This document shows positions 2,277-36,495 of a stretch of 36,648 nt of DNA, piece by piece. Source of the stretch: a virus (Duplodnaviria > Heunggongvirae > Uroviricota > Caudoviricetes); the IMG/VR virus record IMGVR_UViG_2675903330_000001. The stretch is one strand, 5' to 3'. The notes beneath the pieces were generated by a model. It had not been told where the DNA came from and did not search any database. It saw only the letters and a list, made by a program, of their open reading frames with translations. Position numbers and translations under genes: made by a program. Each line of letters starts with the position of its first letter. Positions within the stretch are counted from its first letter, which is position 1.

Positions 2277-2575
2277 GATTTGCCCTCGCGTGAAAAATAT
2301 TTTCGATTATTTATAAAAAAGACTTGACCAAATCAAAAGGTACTGTTCCACGGATGAAATAAAGGGAGTTTTCGGCACCCCGGTTTTTGATGTGCGTGTG
2401 AGATTTCAAAACAGGTGCAGTGCAGCCCACCAGCGCGGTCGCTACGCGACTATTAACACCCGCCAATCCCTTTCCATGCCTCGATCTTTCCCTTCGTTAT
2501 AAAGCGTTTTAGGCGCTCTCCTGAATGCGCAGATCAGATAAATAATTTTACGCAAATTTAATGGAGGATAACCGG

Positions 2576-3127
2576 ATGAAAGAAGAATTAACCCTTACAG
2601 AAATTTCCCGTTTATACGGCTATACAATTAACGCCGCTAAGAAATGGCAAGAACGAGGAATGCCATTTAATACCAATACCCGCCGCGTGCCAGCCAAAGA
2701 AGGAACAGAATGGGTCTTGAAAAATATCATCAACCCGCTTAAAGAAACTACTGTCAAGGAACAAATCGACGTAGAGAAATTACGCCGTGAGAGAGCATTA
2801 GCAGATGCAGCCGAACGAGAGAACCAGGAAGCGATGAATCTCCTGATTCCCGTCGGGTATGTGGAGCAGGAGCTAGCGGAATATTGCGGGAAAGTGAAGC
2901 AGACTATTTTGCAGATCGCCACAATCGATGCCCTAGAAATTCTCGAATCTGCCAATGACCAGAAAACATTGAAGAATAAGCTAAGAGAGATTATCGAGCG
3001 TCGTTTAAATGAAGTAGGGGACTTGTTCGAAAATGCAGATTTGGGAGAAGACGAGGAAGAAGAATTACCATTAATGGATGAACCGGAACAAGAACCAGAA
3101 GAAGACGATGAATTTGATGTGTCTTAA
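2576..3127 (+). CDS. Nu1-like winged-HTH DNA-binding protein, probable terminase small subunit
   Basis: GGAGG 8 nt upstream of the ATG at 2576. N-terminus LTLTEISRLYGYTINAAKKWQERGMP resembles the lambda Nu1 HTH (TIQNWQEQGMP); acidic C-terminal tail. A gpA-type large terminase (9781) normally pairs with a Nu1-type small subunit. Confidence 0.5.
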   Translation: MKEELTLTEISRLYGYTINAAKKWQERGMPFNTNTRRVPAKEGTEWVLKNIINPLKETTVKEQIDVEKLRRERALADAAERENQEAMNLLIPVGYVEQELAEYCGKVKQTILQIATIDALEILESANDQKTLKNKLREIIERRLNEVGDLFENADLGEDEEEELPLMDEPEQEPEEDDEFDVS

Positions 3128-3227
3128 AAATTAGATACTAAATATATACGTGAAGGATGTTGAGCTGGTCAACGTCTACGGGGGAGAACATCCCCCGCTA
3201 ACCTTTTTCTTATTTGAGGATTTACCT

Positions 3228-3329
3228 ATGGTTGAATTTTTGATTTATCTGGCTGTAGGATTAACTATCGTATATTCACTGGCACATATTGGCATTTCTA
3301 CTTTGTGTAACGCTTTCAAGTATCATTAA
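3228..3329 (+). CDS. small hydrophobic peptide (33 aa, one predicted TM helix)
   Basis: ATG with GAGGA 8 nt upstream; MVEFLIYLAVGLTIVYSLAHIGISTLCNAFKYH. Too short for the ORF track. Confidence 0.4.
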   Translation: MVEFLIYLAVGLTIVYSLAHIGISTLCNAFKYH

Positions 3330-3382
3330 TTAAATCGATGAATTGAACTATAGATGATGGTCGTTTTCAAAGAGGATTATCT

Positions 3383-3556
3383 ATGGATCTTTTTGTCTAC
3401 TTTGCTACTCTGCTGTTTTTGACTATCGTCGCTGGCATTAAATTGATTTTTATATCGCTGGTGGTGTTTTTCAAATTTCTAATCGGTACGCCTTACGGCT
3501 GGGTATGCTTCTTTTTGTTTATTCTTTTTAGTTGCTGTAAAAAGGATACTAAATAA
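3383..3556 (+). CDS. small hydrophobic membrane protein (57 aa, two predicted TM helices)
   Basis: ATG with AGAGGA upstream; MDLFVYFATLLFLTIVAGIKLIFISLVVFFKFLIGTPYGWVCFFLFILFSCCKKDTK. Too short for the ORF track. Confidence 0.45.
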   Translation: MDLFVYFATLLFLTIVAGIKLIFISLVVFFKFLIGTPYGWVCFFLFILFSCCKKDTK

Positions 3557-4097: not shown

Positions 4098-5117
4098 TTA
4101 AGCTGCGTATGCGTAGGCGCTGTAGTTGGTGTCATAGATAGCGTCATGCAGTGCCATATGTGCTTCGCGGATCTCGTCTTCGTTTACTTCAATCTCTTCT
4201 TGTTCTTCTTCGGTATCTTCCCAAGTGGTTTTGAATTTAGCCATAAAGTTATTGCGCAGTGTTTCAAAGTTGGTAACTGGTGCGGATTCTGCTTCAACCG
4301 GAACCGGAACTACTACCGGATCAGCTTCTTTCTGTTCTACTTCTTCACCGTTACCCCAACGATAGTTAAGGAGTTCTTCCAGTTCTTCATCAATGGATTT
4401 TTCTTCAACTGCTTCAACTTCAACCGCTGCTACTTCGAAAGTGGTTTCCTGTGCTGACAGTTCAGCTTTCAGAGATGCGTTTTCTGCTTTAACTGCTGCC
4501 ATTTCTGCTTCCAGTTCAGCAATGCGTGCGTTCAGTGCTTCAACTTCGGAAGATTCAACCACTGCAACTTCTTCTTTAACTTCTTCAACTACTACCGGAG
4601 CAACTTCTTTCTGTGCTTCTTTTTTGCAGAAGAAGGAGGAAGTAACCTGTAATGCGTGGTTGTAGAAGGAACCGCCTTTAGTGGTGTTAACAGTACCAGA
4701 AACATCTTTTACAGTGGATTCGGTAGCAACAGTACGGAAGCGTTTAGCAACTTCCTGGGTCTCTACGCCGTATTCGTTACGCTTGCTCTTGTGATGCATT
4801 ACAGCACGGAAGCCGGAAGCAGTTTTAACAACAGCGAGATAGTAAGTTTCATCGGCTTTAGCAGCACGAGCGAAGCAATAAACGGATTCACCTTCTACCA
4901 GTGTAGGTTTAACGTGACGTTTGTCGAAACGGTTAGTGATCTGCCATTCAGCACCGTCTTTGATGCCAGCATTCTGACGCATTTCGGTCAGAGTCTTACC
5001 GGATACTACTTCAAAGGATTTGTCTTGTTTGCTTGCTTTACCTTCCATGACGGTAATGTTCAGTTTGCCGTTGGATTTAATAAACAGGTTGAAGGTGATG
5101 CGCTTAGAATTTTTCAT
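4098..5117 (-). CDS. hypothetical protein (339 aa) with N-terminal globular domain and acidic Ala/Glu-rich coiled-coil
   Basis: Longest uninterrupted frame in the region, AGGAG RBS 10 nt upstream. The plus-strand ORFs over the same DNA are fragmented Ser/Thr-rich antisense artefacts. Confidence 0.6.
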   Translation of the reverse strand: MKNSKRITFNLFIKSNGKLNITVMEGKASKQDKSFEVVSGKTLTEMRQNAGIKDGAEWQITNRFDKRHVKPTLVEGESVYCFARAAKADETYYLAVVKTASGFRAVMHHKSKRNEYGVETQEVAKRFRTVATESTVKDVSGTVNTTKGGSFYNHALQVTSSFFCKKEAQKEVAPVVVEEVKEEVAVVESSEVEALNARIAELEAEMAAVKAENASLKAELSAQETTFEVAAVEVEAVEEKSIDEELEELLNYRWGNGEEVEQKEADPVVVPVPVEAESAPVTNFETLRNNFMAKFKTTWEDTEEEQEEIEVNEDEIREAHMALHDAIYDTNYSAYAYAA

Positions 5118-5233: not shown

Positions 5234-5413
5234 TTAACAAACTTGAACGTTAATCTTTATCTGAATTTCGTATTTCTTCATTAGCTTATAGAATCCGCTT
5301 CTATCAATTCCTTCCTTCTTAAAGAAATTCTCGCCGCCTCGTTCAGTATCGCCATAAAAGCGTTTAGCAATATCAACAATCATTTCACGAGTAAACTTAA
5401 CAGGTCTAGCCAT
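5234..5413 (-). CDS. small HTH DNA-binding protein (59 aa), candidate transcriptional regulator
   Basis: ATG at 5413 with GAGGA RBS (the track start at 5428 is a TTG). C-terminal GIDRSGFYKLMKKYEI looks like a helix-turn-helix. First gene of a minus-strand operon diverging from the large intergenic region. Confidence 0.45.
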   Translation of the reverse strand: MARPVKFTREMIVDIAKRFYGDTERGGENFFKKEGIDRSGFYKLMKKYEIQIKINVQVC

Positions 5414-5981
5414 AAGTAGATTCCTCAAATGTGGATTAATAAGGACAATAAAAAGAGCTTTTCGCCCTCGATACTTCTATTTATAAAAGTCATTTCAGAA
5501 AACCCTGCAAAACCACTGTATATCTGATCAGTGGGAGCACGAATTGCTAAAGAGAAGATTAATAATTAATCAATTCGTACATTATTCAATCGAAAAAGCA
5601 CTGTGTGTTTAACCAGTGCTGTGTGTGTTAACAGTGAATCAGGGGATTTTCAGAAGTGAACAATCATTTCATGCATGTATTTATACACGAAAAAATCTTG
5701 TTTATCATCAATATGTGGATTGTTTCGAAAATTTCAACCCCTACCAATGAGAAAAAGTATAAAATAATCCTTGACAGTTGTCAATGCACTTGACCTAAGC
5801 GAGAAATGACTATCAAAATTTTTGTGTGAAAATGGCGGATAACGATTATCAACCTTTATAACCTATTATAGCACGGCGACCTTTTGATAATTCTTTTTAA
5901 ATCATGCATTTACAGCGATTTTTGGTGATTTTCCGGTTAAATAATATACAAGAATTTTCTATCAAAATTTTTGATGAAAAA

Positions 5982-6122
5982 CCTACACTACAAACCTACG
6001 CTTTAAAGGTATTGGCCTACACTACACTAGTCAGTAAACCTACACTATAACACCCTCAAACCTACACTATGAAACCCTCAAACCTACACTATGAAACCTA
6101 CACACCTACACTAACCCTACAC
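5982..6122. repeat. iteron-like array: at least 9 copies of CCTACAC within about 21-bp tandem units (AAACCTACACTATGAAACCCTC)
   Basis: Direct count of CCTACAC/CCTACGC at 5982, 5995, 6016, 6039, 6061, 6083, 6097, 6105 and 6116. Confidence 0.8.
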
Positions 6123-6700
6123 TTCAATCTCATAAGTGTATGATCTTGAAAGACATTTCACCCCACAGACCATAGAATATAAAATTCGAACTAACGTTCT
6201 CCTTTTTGCTCGTTTTCTCTCACTACGTTCAAGAAAGATCTCGCAAAAAGAATACGGCGTAGCCGTGCGCGAAGCGCCCATCAACACCTTCTAAGACCTG
6301 CAAGCAGGATTCGAAAGGGATTGGATAGTTCGCTTCGCTCACGTTCACGCCTACGGCGTTCACTCGCTTTTGAAAGGATTTTCTTAGAAAGGGATTTAAT
6401 ACTAGTTACTAACTGATTCTAGTAAACGAACGAAGTGAGTAACAATCACTTTCTAGAAAGGTATTGGTATCCCTTCGGGATTGCAACCTTCGGTTGCTAA
6501 ATTGCTTCCTGATTATAATTTCTCCAAAAGAAAGATTCTTATATTCTAAAGATACTTCTTCGTTTTGATGATGATTTAATCAAATATATGAAGGAGGGCT
6601 TTAGCCCGACTGAATCCAATCACTTCCAAATAGATAAAAAATTCTCGTTATAAATAATAGTGAACTTACTTGATTCACTTTCTTTTAGAGGATTTCCACT

Positions 6701-7150
6701 ATGATCAATACTAAAACTCCTTTCGTACTTCTGGGTCTGGACTCTGAAAACTATGGCAACTTCCATATGCTAGAAGTTTTCGCTAATCGTGGTTATAACA
6801 TCATTCGTCATTCCGAAGACTCCAACTACTCAACTGCTTTCTACGCTTTAAAACGAAATGGTCGTCCTACTGTGATCATCGACTGTTTTACTGATGAGGG
6901 TCGTCTTCAATACAACGATATTCCAGCAATTATTGTTCGTGATGATCTGCCGTTTCAAGTCCGTTCCGGTGACATTGACCTGGGTAGCTTCTTGACTCTT
7001 CGTGAACTGGATGAAGCAATGTTTAATTACGGTAAAGAAACCGCTCAGGAAGCCCCAGAACAAGATGAGGAAGACGAAGACTACGCACCAATCGCTTTCT
7101 CTTCTCACGGTGGCTTCTACGGTTACGATGAAGGCTTAGATATGCTGTAA
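6701..7150 (+). CDS. hypothetical protein (149 aa) with acidic C-terminal tail
   Basis: AGAGGA RBS; codon usage strongly biased to E. coli optimal codons; C-terminus EAPEQDEEDEDYAPIAF ... FYGYDEGLDML. Confidence 0.55.
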   Translation: MINTKTPFVLLGLDSENYGNFHMLEVFANRGYNIIRHSEDSNYSTAFYALKRNGRPTVIIDCFTDEGRLQYNDIPAIIVRDDLPFQVRSGDIDLGSFLTLRELDEAMFNYGKETAQEAPEQDEEDEDYAPIAFSSHGGFYGYDEGLDML

Positions 7151-7185
7151 GTTAGGTCAACCCTTTGGCGTCTTGTCAAGGGGTA

Positions 7186-7214
7186 TTGACAAAAATTTCT
7201 GACTTTTTTATGAT
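7186..7214 (+). promoter_or_regulatory. sigma70-type promoter (TTGACA, 17 bp, TATGAT)
   Basis: Near-consensus -35 and -10 with 17-bp spacer, 57 bp upstream of the 7271 ATG; followed by a second TTGACA and a TTGACCTAG motif that also occurs at 5787-5800. Confidence 0.5.
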
Positions 7215-7270
7215 TATCGCACTTGACAACTTTGAACCTATTTGACCTAGATTTGTAAAGAGGATGTAAC

Positions 7271-7603
7271 ATGAAAGAATTTACCATCACTAAATCCCTG
7301 TATGACTGGACTGTTAAAATCTCCGGCAAAACCGTTTCTGTAACCCCTAGCCATGTAGAAAATGATTGGGGTGTATCCCGTGAAACTATCTCCCGTAGTA
7401 TGCATGTTCCGTTTGATCTGATGACCTTAACTGGTATTCATGCAATGCTGGAAGTTCGCGAGCAATTCGAAGCTGGTAATCACAATGCGACTCCAGTTAA
7501 CAATCACCTTCTTACTAATGAAGAACGTGAAATCATCGAAAATTGGCGTTATGAATATGCGATTCCTTATTATGAAGAAGACCAAGTAGAAATCGATTGG
7601 TAA
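7271..7603 (+). CDS. hypothetical protein (110 aa)
   Basis: AGAGGA RBS, intact ORF, optimal codon usage. Confidence 0.5.
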   Translation: MKEFTITKSLYDWTVKISGKTVSVTPSHVENDWGVSRETISRSMHVPFDLMTLTGIHAMLEVREQFEAGNHNATPVNNHLLTNEEREIIENWRYEYAIPYYEEDQVEIDW

Positions 7604-7692
7604 TAAATTTCTATCATAAATAAAAATGTTCCGGTGGTGATGCCGGAACTAGGAGGATCAATATCACTAAACCGTTTAAGGGGAATTTTACT

Positions 7693-8526
7693 ATGAATAC
7701 TGTTACTACTATGAATACTGCTGTTAAAACTGCTTCCGTGTCTCTGGTTGTTGATAACGAAGTTGCAAAAATGACTCTTCGTGAAATTGCCGACCTTATT
7801 GGAGTTCGTTTTTCAAACCTTGAAACTTCTATGAACCGACTGGTTGAACGCCAAGTTATCCGAAAACCTGCAACGCAGAATTTCGAGAAAATCAATAACT
7901 TAGGGTTTGCTGTTACTGTTAAAGATTATGTGTTTGAGGGTGAGCAAGGTCGCTTAGATTCGATTGTCTTGATTGCTCAAAACGTACCGGAATTTACTCG
8001 CCAACTGGTTGACCGTTGGAATTATCTGGAAGAGAAACTGAAAACCGCCAATAATACTCCTGTTAACCCGTATGCGGACTTTGAAGAAACCGACTGGATC
8101 GAACTGGCATTAGATGAAAAACGCAAAAATAAAAAACTGATTGAGCTACACATTCGCAAATCCGTAGATAGCCATTCTATGACACGTCTGTTAGGCGCTA
8201 AAAAGGGCGCTACGAAGGTTAAACAAGCACTGACGGCCTTACGTACTGCTGGCTACATTGAGCGCGTCTATGATGAAAATAACAAGCCGTGTGGGTATGT
8301 TGCTAATGACTCTTCTCTGTCTTTCTGCCGCATGAATGCTCATTACCAGCTTGAGTTTACTGTTGATGTTCTTCCGGTGCTGGTTGAATTGGGCGTTTTG
8401 GAAGAAGAACAGAAAGCAACTCTTAAACTGCCGCAGCCAAATAACACTATTCTGATTCAAAACAAAGCTGCTAAACAGATTCGTGAATCAGGTAACGTAA
8501 TTTCCCTTGTTGATTTTGGGATCTGA
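7693..8526 (+). CDS. phage regulatory protein, Rha-like (putative antirepressor)
   Basis: AAGGGGA RBS; N-terminal MTLREIADLIGVRFSNLETSMNRLVERQ resembles the Rha-family N-terminal DNA-binding region. Confidence 0.45.
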   Translation: MNTVTTMNTAVKTASVSLVVDNEVAKMTLREIADLIGVRFSNLETSMNRLVERQVIRKPATQNFEKINNLGFAVTVKDYVFEGEQGRLDSIVLIAQNVPEFTRQLVDRWNYLEEKLKTANNTPVNPYADFEETDWIELALDEKRKNKKLIELHIRKSVDSHSMTRLLGAKKGATKVKQALTALRTAGYIERVYDENNKPCGYVANDSSLSFCRMNAHYQLEFTVDVLPVLVELGVLEEEQKATLKLPQPNNTILIQNKAAKQIRESGNVISLVDFGI

Positions 8527-8532
8527 TTAATC

Positions 8533-8562
8533 GCCCGGCGCATAATTGCGCTGGGCTTTTTT
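8533..8562 (+). terminator. rho-independent terminator
   Basis: GCCCGGCGC-ATAATT-GCGCTGGGC stem followed by T6, immediately after the 8526 stop. Confidence 0.7.
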
Positions 8563-8573
8563 GTATCTGATGC

Positions 8574-8790
8574 ATCCAGATTTGGATTTATCGGAAGAAT
8601 CAATAGGTTAGAGATGAGCGCAGTTTTGCGCCGATTGATTCAAGTTTGAATTTCTCGAAAGAATCAACCACTTAGATAGATACGCTGAACTTTAAGCACA
8701 TCTCCTCAGTTTTGAGGGCATCTATAGATCAGTCCAAATCTGGACTCATCGGAAGAATCAATGACTTAGAGATGTGCTCAGTTTTGAGCG
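8574..8790. repeat. three tandem 50-70 bp direct repeats (core TCGGAAGAATCAAT ... TTAGAGATG ... CAGTTTTG), outer copies prefixed by inverted CCAGATTTGG / CCAAATCTGG
   Basis: Copies at about 8574-8640, 8648-8720 (degenerate) and 8725-8790, lying between convergent terminators. Confidence 0.7.
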
Positions 8791-8794
8791 GATA

Positions 8795-8824
8795 TAAAAA
8801 AGGCCAACCCCGAAGGATTGGCCT
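8795..8824 (-). terminator. rho-independent terminator for the minus-strand operon
   Basis: AGGCCAA ... TTGGCCT hairpin preceded on the plus strand by A6, giving a T-run on the minus strand after the 8831 stop. Confidence 0.6.
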
Positions 8825-8830
8825 AGAGAA

Positions 8831-9061
8831 TCAAATTCCTGTTGCTTCTACCATTTCACCGTCAACCTGAACAAAGAATTTCAAATCAACTTTATGTAGG
8901 GATTTGTATAGCTGGGCTATAGATAAGCCATGCTCATTTAATACCCGTTCTTTGTTCTCTTTACCTTTCGGTGCTTGATAGTACGCTTTTACAATCGCTG
9001 CCAGTTGTTCACGATTAAAACGGGCAGGGCGACCGCGAGTAGCTTTAGTAGTCATAGTCAT
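8831..9061 (-). CDS. small DNA-binding protein (about 75 aa)
   Basis: GGAG RBS; ATG at 9061 or 9055; TKATRGRPARFNREQ followed by an HTH-like GLSIAQLYKSLHK. Confidence 0.45.
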   Translation of the reverse strand: MTMTTKATRGRPARFNREQLAAIVKAYYQAPKGKENKERVLNEHGLSIAQLYKSLHKVDLKFFVQVDGEMVEATGI

Positions 9062-9090
9062 TTTCTCCAAATTAAAGTGAATGTTCACCT

Positions 9091-9693
9091 TTATTTAGAG
9101 GACTTACATTTTATAGGAAAAAGTTCTCCATCGTCAACCGACATAAAGAACTCTGCCTTAATCCCGTACTTCTTCAACCGTGAATAGTATGTACCCCGAC
9201 TTATATCAACCTTGCGCAGCACTTCGAAGAAGGACTTAGGATCGTTGTAATAGTGGCTATATCGCACGTTAGCGAGTTCTACAAACAATTCCCTTGTATC
9301 ACCATAGCCTTTCTTAAAAGCCTCGTTACGATAGCGTGTAATAGCGTGATTCAATCTCTTCTGTTTCAACACTTCTCGGATCGGCTTCCACTGCAACCGA
9401 TAGATAGGACCGTCATCAATGCGATAATAACGCTTGATATCAAAATCAAACCAATCTCGGACTCTCCGAAACTCTGTATGTGATGTTCTATGCTTCTTAA
9501 AGAAGTTGTGAACGTCTGTATAACCATTATCGCGGTAAAATTCTATTAAAATCTCTTTCGCTTCCTCACGGCTAAACCCAGATGTTGTGTAGTCGGTCTT
9601 CTTGTGATGGTGCTTAACTGGCAAACGATATTCATGATCGGTACAAGACAAGGCTAATTCTAATTCATCTCTTTCTTGCTGATTAATTAGCAT
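9091..9693 (-). CDS. hypothetical HTH-containing protein (200 aa)
   Basis: Transcribed divergently from terL; C-terminal [23 protein letters not shown] is HTH-like; an internally repeated basic/aromatic segment. Confidence 0.45.
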
Positions 9694-9780
9694 ACACCCT
9701 CCTTAAATCTTAATACCCGTATTTATCAAAAAATCAACAATTTAATAAATACCTTCATATTTCGTAATGAGGGTAATTAC

Positions 9781-22155: not shown

Positions 22156-22626
22156 ATGACTACTAAATTTGATATTTTTTCTGGTGGCCTCGTTGGTCTG
22201 TTTCTGCATGAAGAAGTAACTAACACCGATCTTGACAGTGAAAGCTATCTGGAAATTCCAGAATGTGCGGCTTTCCCGGAAACTGGTGTAGAACGTTCTA
22301 CTGTCGATGTTCCTAACTTCGGTGGTCCGTATAACCGTAAGCTGGTTGGTCGTATGTCTGTACCGGATATCGAACTTTCGATCAACTACATGCCGGGTAA
22401 CGAAGTACACGAAAAACTGATTAAAGCAACCGAAGACGGTAAGCGCGTACAGATTAAAATTGCTTACTACATCGACGCTACGAAAAAATCTGGTGTACAT
22501 ATCGCTTATAACGGCTTCCTGTCTAAAACTACCATGACTGGTGGTGAGGATGCTGTAGTAGGCCGTACCTTCACCTTTGTAGTAGATGGTGCTCCGGTTA
22601 AACAAGCTGTTTTCCAGAAACTCTAA
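22156..22626 (+). CDS. major tail tube protein
   Basis: 156 aa, immediately upstream of the G/GT chaperone pair and the tape measure gene; optimal codon usage; terminator-like hairpin after the stop. Confidence 0.6.
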   Translation: MTTKFDIFSGGLVGLFLHEEVTNTDLDSESYLEIPECAAFPETGVERSTVDVPNFGGPYNRKLVGRMSVPDIELSINYMPGNEVHEKLIKATEDGKRVQIKIAYYIDATKKSGVHIAYNGFLSKTTMTGGEDAVVGRTFTFVVDGAPVKQAVFQKL

Positions 22627-33755: not shown

Positions 33756-34754
33756 ATGAATACTACTTTAGCAAAGGATATCGAATTTACCGCAAAAAGC
33801 AAACGTGCGACCCCTCCGGTCGAATATGAAACCAGAATCATTAAAGTTTGTCAAGCGCATGGATGGTTATACAGTGGTTTTGTGCTTCCTGTAAAGAAAC
33901 CATTCCAGAACACCAAAGTTTGCATAGAAGTTAACGGAAAGGTTAAAACGCCATGTATTAGTCATGTTCTAACTGGTCAGTTTACTGGCAAAGATAGAGT
34001 ATCACCGCCTAAGAAGAAGTTTAGATTTACCGAAGAAGAACACTTAGAAAACGCTCGCAAGTTCTACAAGCCGATAGGGTGGGATGTGTTAGGTCTGGCT
34101 GAACCTTATCAGGGTGTTGACACTAAACTAATTCTTCGTTGTAAGTGCCACGGAAAGATTCACAAGAAAGGTGATTTACACAATAACCGCAGACAAGGCG
34201 GGTTAACATGCCCTTTGGTTAGGGGTGTACTTAAATCAATTCAGAATGGTAGAAAACAGGTTATCAGAAACAAGTTTGCACAGCGCCCTATGCACTTTTA
34301 TCTAATTCGTGTTGGCGAGAAGTTTTTCAAATATGGAATTACCACTCGCAAAGATCCGATGCAACGGGTAAGAGAACACCAGAAGCACACCAGCGAGAAA
34401 ATCACCTTTGAATGCTCACATTTGTTTAACATTGGATGGAAAGCTGGTGATTTAGAAATGGGGATTAAAAAGAATATTCAGGGCAAGAAAATCCCACGTA
34501 AGGTAATGAATAGCGGATTCACAGAAACGCTACCGATTAGCAAGCTGAAAGATGTTAAATCATTCATCAATGAATACATCCACACCAACCCATCTAAGCC
34601 AATGTATTTTGATGATACCAACGCAATCAATCTGAACAACTACATTAGTGATGAAGACATAGAACGAGATTTATCGCAGTGGATGAATGCACCGTTAGCT
34701 GATTTAACACCGGAAGACCTAGAACTCGATTTAAGCCCTTTAGAGGCTCTTTAA
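33756..34754 (+). CDS. hypothetical protein with Cys/His-rich N-terminal region and GIY-YIG-like (T5orf172-type) C-terminal domain
   Basis: GAGGA RBS; FYLIRVGEKFFKYGITTRKDPMQRVREH resembles the GIY-YIG / T5orf172 core; several Cys and His upstream (CQAHGW, CIEVNG, RCKCHGKIHKKGD, LTCP). Confidence 0.45.
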   Translation: MNTTLAKDIEFTAKSKRATPPVEYETRIIKVCQAHGWLYSGFVLPVKKPFQNTKVCIEVNGKVKTPCISHVLTGQFTGKDRVSPPKKKFRFTEEEHLENARKFYKPIGWDVLGLAEPYQGVDTKLILRCKCHGKIHKKGDLHNNRRQGGLTCPLVRGVLKSIQNGRKQVIRNKFAQRPMHFYLIRVGEKFFKYGITTRKDPMQRVREHQKHTSEKITFECSHLFNIGWKAGDLEMGIKKNIQGKKIPRKVMNSGFTETLPISKLKDVKSFINEYIHTNPSKPMYFDDTNAINLNNYISDEDIERDLSQWMNAPLADLTPEDLELDLSPLEAL

Positions 34755-34827: not shown

Positions 34828-36495
34828 TTAAATTCCAAATTCCTGTAATGGACCTGGTATTTCCTCTTCTGGTTTCCAGTCTTTATCTGTCAGCATGTCT
34901 AAACATGGATGCAGAACAAGCCCGTTACTCTCCAGAATCTGCCTATCATTGATAGTTTTCAAATCGACAAAGATTTGTCCTTTCCTCGTTCCTCTTGAAT
35001 TTTCTATTACAACTCTCTGGGTCTTTCCATCGATGTATTCCAGCACAAACAAGTTTTTATTTCTGTCAATCCTGCTACACCCGATCCGCTTTAGAGCTTG
35101 CTTAATCTTAAACCGGACCTTTAGTCGTTCCTCGTTATAAACATCTTCTAAATCAAATTCTGCGAGCTTCTCCCAGCCTTGAGAGTCCACAGAATACATT
35201 TCCTCTTCTGCCATCTTGATCTGATTGTAGAGTGTTTCACGCTCGCTATTGAGGGTAGTAATCTGATCGGCTAGCTCCTTCGTTGCTCCTGTCATAGCAG
35301 AAAGGGCAATCAGGTTATCAATCTTGCGTGATATCTCATCAACCTGTACTTTCAACGCCGGAACCGGATTAGCCTTGTCCTCAGCAATCCATATTTTATC
35401 AGCCAGCAATTGCAATACAGCTTTCTCTAATTGATCACCTCGAAAACTCCAGTTTGGATGCTCGCAATCAAGTCTACGTGAACGGGTCGCATCACATGTA
35501 TAACGATACTGGTCAGAACGTTTGTTCGTTCCCTTCACTTTAACCATAGCGCAACCGCAATGATCACATTTCAATAGGCCAATACCACTAAGCAGGGGGA
35601 TCGGTTTAACTTCTTCCTTGTCTCCAAAGTTCCATGCTCTAGCACCAATATTTTTCTTAAGGTGATAGAACGTAGCATCATCAATAACACGAGGGTAATA
35701 ATCCTTTAACTCATAGTTAACACCATCTACAGAGACTTCCTTGATACCAATCAAAGCGCGGGTATGGAACAACCTTTCAACCATTGCCCGTGACCATTTT
35801 GAATGCTTCTTATTACTAACCGCTGGTGGCGGTGTATATGTCTCGTTAAGGTGATCCAGTATTTCGGCGGTTGAACGTCCATTCTTCCGTAATTCCACAA
35901 TCTCCTGAACAACAGGGAAGTATGTAGGATGAGGCAACACATAACCGGAAGTGGTATCCGTCCACCACATATTCTTTCCAACTTCCTCGATTGCCACTGC
36001 CGGATTCTGGGGATTTTCTTGATGGGCTTTAATCTTAATCAGTGCGCTTGAGTTAGTACGATTGCGCTTAGTCTGGCTTTCCTCATTACCACGGATGAAT
36101 AAAAGGATGGAGAACATCAGGTCCATCGGGTTAGCGGTAACAGTATCCAGCGAGTAGATCTTGTTATCCATGCCAGTAACAATGGTTATCCCCCTACGGA
36201 TGATTGAAAGGAATAACTCCTGCGCACTGACAATATCGGCACGGGATAAGCGGTCCAAGTTTTCAATGAATAGCCAGCTACCAACAGGAACGGATCTACC
36301 AATTGCATCAAGGAAACGAGATAGCGCCCCTGTTTTGGAGTTAGCACCCTTAAACGCAGATACACCCAGATCCTGATAATCATTTACCAGTTCAAGGTCA
36401 TACTTTGCCGCAACCTCTCTCGCCATCCTGATTTGTCGTTCATAACTCGAACCATCATTCTGACGCATAGACGAGAAGCGAATATACGAATACAG
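34828..36495 (-). CDS. large serine recombinase (prophage integrase), 5' end interrupted by IS1
   Basis: Resolvase-type catalytic region, recombinase domain, zinc ribbon (CDHCGC ... CDATRSRRLDCEH) and coiled-coil. The catalytic Y-x-R-x-S motif (LYSYIRFSS) lies upstream of the first ATG (36468) and runs directly into the IS1 terminus at 36496 with no start codon in between. Confidence 0.8.
   Translation of the reverse strand: MYSYIRFSSMRQNDGSSYERQIRMAREVAAKYDLELVNDYQDLGVSAFKGANSKTGALSRFLDAIGRSVPVGSWLFIENLDRLSRADIVSAQELFLSIIRRGITIVTGMDNKIYSLDTVTANPMDLMFSILLFIRGNEESQTKRNRTNSSALIKIKAHQENPQNPAVAIEEVGKNMWWTDTTSGYVLPHPTYFPVVQEIVELRKNGRSTAEILDHLNETYTPPPAVSNKKHSKWSRAMVERLFHTRALIGIKEVSVDGVNYELKDYYPRVIDDATFYHLKKNIGARAWNFGDKEEVKPIPLLSGIGLLKCDHCGCAMVKVKGTNKRSDQYRYTCDATRSRRLDCEHPNWSFRGDQLEKAVLQLLADKIWIAEDKANPVPALKVQVDEISRKIDNLIALSAMTGATKELADQITTLNSERETLYNQIKMAEEEMYSVDSQGWEKLAEFDLEDVYNEERLKVRFKIKQALKRIGCSRIDRNKNLFVLEYIDGKTQRVVIENSRGTRKGQIFVDLKTINDRQILESNGLVLHPCLDMLTDKDWKPEEEIPGPLQEFGI

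Follow-up and report, generated by a model that had tools for sequence, protein, structure and literature searches.

Acidic C-terminal docking tails are known from E. coli SSB, which ends in ...DFDDDIPF, from T7 gp2.5 and from T4 gp32. The phage Mu regulators MuC and Mor use short clamp-binding motifs with the consensus QL[SD]LF or Qx[DE][LM]F (PMC12867686). Features that recall these proteins, and others that recall the Rha-family regulators (Rha of P22 and phi80; PF09669), occur together in the locus described here, a trio of plus-strand open reading frames (ORFs), ORF1, ORF2 and ORF3, at positions 6701 to 8526 of a 36,648-nucleotide (nt) stretch of DNA (IMG/VR record IMGVR_UViG_2675903330_000001; hereafter, the window). 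A first-pass annotation made from the letters of the window had singled out these genes, and their coordinates, lengths and sequences (Table 1) are all as it gave them. The window is a piece of E. coli chromosome in which a tRNA-Ser gene (168-255) is followed by ghrA and then by a truncated ycdX, which is interrupted by a prophage of ~33 kb (about 1.9 to 36.5 kb of the window) with a large serine recombinase at its right end. The trio keeps the same order in all relatives of this prophage and has its own promoter-like elements and terminator. Our preferred reading, which is tentative and falls a little short of an even chance, is that the three genes serve early lytic functions, with ORF1 as a non-enzymatic adaptor that docks on a conserved partner, probably a host hub protein, ORF3 as a regulator and ORF2 as an accessory protein.

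ORF1 gave no significant match in Pfam, PHROGs, NCBIfam, PADLOC or the PDB sequences, and tblastn with the whole protein found nothing in 50,697 phage records and 72,556 plasmids, nor did the tail peptide by itself match any of the 50,697 phage records. A word-indexed search returned homologues in 76 clusters that came without exception from E. coli or Shigella, and an exhaustive profile search found just 11 among 1.84 billion representatives. Three of these 11 are distant full-length homologues encoded at the same position of the same prophage architecture, which places ORF1 in the core of this lineage and not among its accessory genes. The predicted structure is a small alpha/beta sandwich of kinase-like topology, followed by a tail modeled as disordered (predicted local distance difference test, pLDDT, <50). 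The best fold matches of the domain are P-loop kinases (gluconate kinase, 1knq, and the T4 deoxynucleoside monophosphate kinase, 1dek), while a Foldseek comparison of the model with viral structures gave nothing at an E value of ≤0.001. The Walker A motif GxxxxGK[ST] is missing, with GLDSENYGN standing there and varying in length among homologues, and a role as kinase or nucleoside triphosphatase was rejected for lack of this motif.

The acidic, aromatic C-terminal tail that had been pointed out in the first-pass annotation can be read directly in the sequence, EAPEQDEEDEDYAPIAFSSHGGFYGYDEGLDML, and the acidic tails that it had also reported on the Nu1-like 188-amino-acid (aa) protein and on the 339-aa protein are both present. 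ORF1 has an isoelectric point (pI) of 4.2; 12 of the 37 tail residues are Asp or Glu and none is basic, and in the 112 residues of the folded domain 16 Asp/Glu are set against 11 Lys/Arg, which leaves a net charge of -5. As the domain is itself acidic, DNA binding by it is unlikely, in contrast to SSB proteins. Two tail motifs, DDY[AE]P[IV]xF and, at the C-terminus, [GA][LF][DQE]ML, persist into the most distant homologues and are kept while the N-terminal domain has diverged, with nonsynonymous divergence (dN) of about 0.6 between the window and the distant relative L009, and likewise in more distant homologues. Synonymous divergence (dS) is 0.16 to 0.21 in the tail versus 0.6 to 0.97 in the N-terminal domain. 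The domain occurs as old, recombining alleles, the ORF1 alleles being mosaic, and evolves at a dN/dS of about 0.3, roughly twofold relaxed relative to TerL or the 200-aa gene and with no sign of positive selection.

The ORF1 allele varies independently of three others, namely that shared by an upstream iteron array and the 339-aa gene, that of ORF3 and that of the integrase. The same ORF1 allele is found, for example, alongside one integrase 97.5% and another 86.8% identical to that of the window, and for want of allele linkage we rejected ORF1 as an integrase-coevolving partner of the directionality-factor type. This independent assortment suggests that the partner of the tail is something conserved.

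That the trio is codon-adapted for high expression is supported by several measures. The codon adaptation index (CAI), calculated with Sharp-Li E. coli weights, is 0.49 for ORF1, 0.50 for ORF2 and 0.39 for ORF3, compared to a prophage median near 0.29, and the corresponding z scores against 1000 synonymous resamplings drawn from pooled prophage codon usage are +4.9, +3.4 and +2.8. Counts that are free of the Sharp-Li weights agree, as Arg is encoded by CGT or CGC in 7/8, 5/5 and 13/15 cases and Gly by GGT or GGC in 12/12, 4/4 and 7/11 cases in ORF1, ORF2 and ORF3, respectively, with no ATA codon in any of them, while the integrase has 17/37 and 17/30 and uses ATA six times. The codons had been described in the first-pass annotation as strongly optimised and unlike most of the prophage; the bias is real, with "strongly" being generous for ORF3, and the trio does stand above the median without being unique. 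Only three other genes match or exceed its bias. The minus-strand 339-aa gene is the most codon-adapted of the whole window (CAI, 0.70; z, +11.9); the other two are the gene for the capsid (0.52; +10.5) and, at 22156-22626, the major tail gene (0.62; +7.3). The bias is retained in alleles that are just 60 to 70% identical and in an unrelated 48-aa gene that replaces ORF2, and it therefore belongs to the position and its expression level instead of being an accident of one sequence.

Signals for expression flank the genes on both sides (Table 1). The element TTATAAATAATAGTG, upstream of ORF1, shows one or two substitutions at most across 8 aligned relatives, and in relative L007 a copy with one substitution has an intrinsic terminator immediately upstream. 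A copy right after a terminator points to a promoter belonging to ORF1 itself, of which TTATAAATAATAGTG is probably the -10 region. The promoter that precedes ORF2 and ORF3 has its -35 hexamer within a palindrome, TTGTCAA-N6-TTGACAA.

According to our preferred reading, the region would comprise the early genes of an uncharacterised lineage of temperate tailed phages, read rightward and with non-structural products. There are so few non-structural genes in the prophage that the trio can be assigned to early lytic functions, and as no replication gene could be recognised anywhere in it, host machinery must be recruited somehow. ORF1 would be abundant and act stoichiometrically, not as an enzyme, with an alpha/beta domain devoid of a nucleotide-binding loop carrying a flexible acidic tail. 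The two conserved short motifs of this tail, one of them at the very C-terminus, would bind to a partner that is itself conserved. The likeliest such partner is a hub protein of the host, with a part in DNA replication or in the control of the cell cycle, and ORF1 would then be a host-takeover or replication-support factor. Its layout resembles that of proteins with SSB-type tails, as in ORF1 too, presumably an abundant protein, a folded domain is joined through a linker that is flexible and acidic to a C-terminal end that is hydrophobic and conserved, and the motif DDY[AE]P[IV]xF resembles the DDDIPF of the SSB tip; unlike SSB proteins, it has an alpha/beta sandwich and not an OB fold, and the SSB-like motif is internal and not C-terminal. 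The C-termini GLDML, AFDML and GLQML found in ORF1 homologues fit positions 2 to 4 of the beta-clamp consensus (PMC12867686), and the pentapeptide is located at the C-terminus, as in several clamp-binding motifs. The similarity to the SSB tip, the clamp-binding motif or the FtsZ C-terminal peptide can serve as a lead only. A bolder version, in which ORF1 founds a new "hub-peptide" family whose tail imitates such host docking peptides (SSB tip, clamp-binding, FtsZ C-terminal) and so captures the replisome or stalls the cell cycle for a 33-kb phage without replication proteins, seems to us very doubtful.

Several points weigh against an early, host-directed adaptor. We infer the early timing of the trio from its position and orientation only. 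In E. coli DEC5A, the ORF1 homologue (L001 9189-9650) has a premature stop directly before the acidic tail, which shows that ORF1 is dispensable for the lysogen and is silent on a role in lytic growth. With respect to the clamp-binding consensus, the tail has no Gln1 and ends in Leu instead of Phe, and its likeness to docking peptides in general is no more than partial. As a separate observation, several ORF1 homologues in the databases are cut off before the tail much like that of DEC5A.

For ORF3, a Rha-like identity had been proposed from an N-terminal motif, and this is supported by homology of the whole protein, although its DNA-binding segment (residues 23 to 115) is a different winged-helix module that does not reach the Rha model. 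ORF3 is 64 to 69% identical over 100% of its length to many PF09669-carrying proteins named as Rha family, yet ORF3 itself gives no match to PF09669 (Phage_pRha) even at E values up to 1. It does match PHROG 63, "anti-repressor Ant," over residues 16 to 148 (E value, 2.3e-15), a name that reflects annotation and not a tested function. One ORF3 allele (P0144) has PF09669 at residues 28 to 111 with 47.1 bits, and in pairwise alignments with the Rha-family alleles ORF3 is nearly identical in residues 1 to 22 and 123 to 277, the module between them being replaced. Given these near-identical flanks around a replaced middle, ORF3 can be considered a Rha-type regulator allele in which the module for DNA recognition has been exchanged. 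The module present in the window (about residues 23 to 120) gave winged-helix matches of the Crp, TrmB and GntR types, all of them sub-threshold, and the conserved half (123 to 277) holds a second winged helix; a match to a DnaD-like loader was very weak (E value, 0.37). Position and two-domain layout are the same as in the Rha family and PHROG 63, the difference being that the segment matching PF09669 in the relatives (28 to 111) is another winged-helix module. ORF3 would be a DNA-binding regulator of the Rha/Ant kind, with a recognition module that is exchanged by recombination and a conserved C-terminal half that carries the common function.

ORF2 gave no significant match in Pfam, PHROGs, NCBIfam, PADLOC or the PDB sequences. 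Its homologues amount to just 8 clusters plus one, 44% identical, in the distant relative L009, and they share a conserved acidic-aromatic C-terminus, YEEDxxxxxW. The slot is occupied by the unrelated 48-aa ORF in three of the six E. coli relatives (L001, L003 and L006), and we infer that ORF2, small and acidic, plays an accessory part in a slot open to exchange. ORF2 had also been considered as a helix-turn-helix protein on account of a GVSRETISR-like stretch, and this was rejected because the stretch is not conserved in the homologues.

The control region upstream of the trio is more unusual and interesting than the trio itself, since it joins iterons with LexA-like boxes in a prophage that has no recognisable replication genes. 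Between the iterons and the N-terminus of the 339-aa protein, allele linkage is perfect, both alleles being found in the same 18 of 58 genomes across a conserved 860-bp segment, and of the five protein/iteron types, related proteins pair with related iterons. By this co-variation the 339-aa protein is probably the iteron-binding protein, as either an immunity repressor or a replication initiator. ORF3 was rejected as the iteron-binding protein, since the iteron allele tracks the 339-aa gene and not the DNA-binding allele of ORF3. Three LexA-box-like sites lie within 120 bp, with the 59-aa gene on one side and the divergent promoters on the other, and include the sole perfect CTGT-N8-ACAG of the window; all six E. 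coli relatives keep the half-sites of these boxes, with variable spacers, and no convincing sigma-70 promoter was found overlapping them. The divergent promoter-like region itself (5756-5819) surrounds the palindrome TTGACAGTTGTCAA, and its leftward promoter, TTGACA-17-TATACT, has 11/12 matches, the rightward one being weaker. Just upstream of the ribosome-binding site of the 59-aa gene there is a hairpin resembling an intrinsic terminator (5453-5469, minus strand), clearer in the distant relatives L007 and L009, which suggests attenuation or, alternatively, a non-coding RNA some 300 nt long that is transcribed leftward.

These surroundings bear on a different role for the trio, as part of the lysis-lysogeny switch, with ORF3 as an antirepressor or activator and ORF1 either neutralising a lysogeny protein (e.g., the 339-aa protein) or acting as a recombination directionality factor. 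The genes are located directly downstream of the divergent promoter region with its iterons and LexA-like boxes, ORF3 matches the PHROG named "anti-repressor Ant," and a phage with a serine integrase needs a directionality factor, none of which is recognisable in the prophage; that the known directionality factors of serine integrases are unrelated small proteins also counts in favor of this role. However, ORF1 alleles do not co-vary with those of the 339-aa gene and iterons or of the integrase, a directionality factor is not expected at high abundance, and the conserved part of ORF1 is the tail, not the variable domain, so that we consider a function in the switch unlikely. The same surroundings would suit a replication module in which ORF3 is the initiator and ORF1 a helicase-loader-like or replisome-recruiting protein, working at an origin within the non-coding DNA ahead of the trio. 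In favour of such a module, the prophage has no other gene that can be recognised as one for replication, both the iterons and a long, structured stretch of non-coding DNA are found just upstream, ORF3 has two winged-helix domains in addition to its very weak DnaD-like match, and the ORF1 tail resembles replisome-recruiting acidic tails. Against this, the iterons are linked to the 339-aa gene and not to the DNA-binding allele of ORF3, ORF3 belongs by homology to a regulator family, ORF1 has no ATPase motif, and the 332-aa endonuclease-like protein is an alternative candidate for the initiator; we regard a replication module as quite improbable.

The first-pass annotation had suggested that ORF1, with its acidic tail, may be a DNA mimic or an anti-defence factor. 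In its broader form, ORF1 and perhaps ORF2 would be abundant early anti-defence factors, either nucleic-acid mimics by virtue of the acidic tail or direct inhibitors of restriction, RecBCD or another system. High codon adaptation suits a stoichiometric inhibitor, ORF1 is acidic overall in pI and in tail composition, it is a lineage-restricted orphan like many anti-defence proteins, its N-terminal domain occurs in old, recombining alleles, and no Gam- or Abc-like inhibitor of RecBCD is recognisable elsewhere in the prophage. ORF1 is also similar to T7 Ocr, ArdA and T7 gp5.9 in being small, acidic, probably abundant and encoded among non-structural genes. It nevertheless has no sequence or fold similarity to these or to any other known anti-defence protein or DNA mimic: the profile searches, which covered PADLOC and the several anti-CRISPR families of NCBIfam, gave no match, and the structure model matched no known DNA mimic in the PDB or the viral structure library. 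The domain carries a net charge of just -5, most of the acidity lying in the disordered tail, where it stands beside conserved motifs of hydrophobic and aromatic residues, and not spread over a rigid, DNA-shaped surface as in Ocr. ORF1 is moreover a core gene and not a variable accessory one, with a position that is fixed throughout the relatives, distant ones included, and a dN/dS of about 0.3 gives no arms-race signal. The low base rate of DNA mimics, which make up just 11 of 268 catalogued anti-defence proteins, counts against mimicry as well (bioRxiv 10.1101/2025.06.06.658234). No positive evidence for the proposal was found, nor any clear homology of ORF1 to a housekeeping or structural family that would speak against it, and we consider the proposal rather unlikely, a shade more so than a role in the switch.

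As it stands, the locus is a routine one, a small early gene set in an unstudied prophage lineage, with a single gene for a recognisable regulator and two that encode acidic orphans. If the ORF1 tail does dock on a host hub protein, as we favour, or on a defence protein, it would provide a compact and testable case of short-motif mimicry by a phage. The lineage deserves attention for its lack of recognisable replication genes and for a control region in which iterons and LexA-like boxes come together with an iteron-linked protein of very high expression.

The region of the trio was found in 58 of 5426 complete E. coli genomes (about 1%), and the prophage is inserted in ycdX in some of them and in hicB in O55:H7 DEC5A. 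A megablast search of the region found no close relative among 50,697 sequenced phages, the best capsid relative among sequenced phages being ≤45% identical, and a literature search by protein accession and insertion site turned up no account of this prophage. In the six E. coli relatives, as in distant ones, the genes follow an identical order, namely 339-aa analogue (minus), 59-aa gene (minus), long non-coding region, ORF1, slot 2, ORF3, 74-aa gene (minus), 200-aa gene (minus) and TerL.

Table 1. Positions of the trio, its expression signals and other features of the prophage in the window
Feature	Position	Strand	Description
ORF1	6701-7150	+	149 aa
ORF1 alpha/beta domain	6701-7036	+	Residues 1-112
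ORF1 acidic tail	7037-7147	+	Residues 113-149; disordered; motifs DEDYAPIAF and, at C-terminus, GFYGYDEGLDML
ORF2	7271-7603	+	110 aa; acidic, pI 4.8
ORF3	7693-8526	+	277 aa; predicted two-domain DNA-binding regulator
TTATAAATAATAGTG	6648-6662	+	About 40 nt upstream of ORF1 start; listed at 6631-6658 by promoter scan
Ribosome-binding site of ORF1	6686-6691	+	AGAGGA
Near-consensus sigma-70 promoter	7186-7214	+	TTGACA-17-TATGAT, 11/12 matches; precedes ORF2 and ORF3
GC-rich hairpin	7628-7649		Between ORF2 and ORF3; terminator-like only if read on minus strand
Intrinsic terminator	8533-8566	+	Strong; 10-bp stem (8 GC pairs), then T-run; closes ORF2-ORF3 unit
ORF-free stretch ahead of ORF1	6130-6700	+	570 nt
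Iteron array	5979-6127		CCTACACTA, 6 exact copies plus variants; upstream of trio
LexA-box-like sites	5516-5531, 5601-5616, 5619-5634		
339-aa gene	4098-5117	-	Coiled-coil protein
Nu1-like small terminase gene	2561-3127		188 aa; PHROG 57
Leftward gene set after small terminase		-	80-aa, 339-aa and 59-aa genes
ORF-free stretch			1.3 kb; between leftward set and trio
85-aa and 200-aa genes	8831-9088, 9091-9693	-	Leftward; after trio
Remaining prophage genes, in order			TerL, portal, protease-capsid fusion, tail genes, lysis genes, 332-aa endonuclease-like gene
Endonuclease-like gene	33756-34754		332 aa
Large serine recombinase gene	34828-36468	-	546 aa; right end of prophage

Within the lineage, the large serine recombinase, by which the prophage enters ycdX or hicB, falls into at least four allele classes. 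The small terminase gene is 6.6 kb away from TerL, with the entire control region in between, and is followed on the plus strand (3150-3556) by two small, strongly hydrophobic ORFs of 59 and 57 aa that may encode membrane proteins. The minus-strand 59-aa protein (5234-5428), the 85-aa protein and two repeats within the 200-aa protein appear to have a small module in common, RPxKFxRE...FFKK.GI.RS.FY...KKY.I, for which no family match was found.

The ORF-free stretch ahead of ORF1 has no Rfam match at either threshold. Short GC-rich hairpins, their loops of the TTCG type, occur in it at 6469-6481 and 6484-6498, and the second of them is kept by fully compensatory changes in relatives L005 and L009, L009 having four such hairpins, and the consensus fold of the ORF1 leader shows little covariation beyond these two small hairpins. 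Given the lack of replication genes, an RNA-primed origin in this stretch is a possibility. Downstream of the trio, positions 8560-8800 contain an array of small palindromic units (TCCAGATTTGGA, GCGCAGTTTTGCGC, GCTGAACTTTAAGC and others) that differ in copy number among relatives; these repeats were rejected as a cos or regulatory site because they are absent or shortened in relatives, where the intergenic region measures 82 to 340 nt. Last, the region between the 200-aa gene and TerL (9694-9780) contains an inverted repeat, GTATTTAT-N18-ATAAATAC, which is perfectly conserved in all relatives and is a candidate site for a regulator of the late genes.

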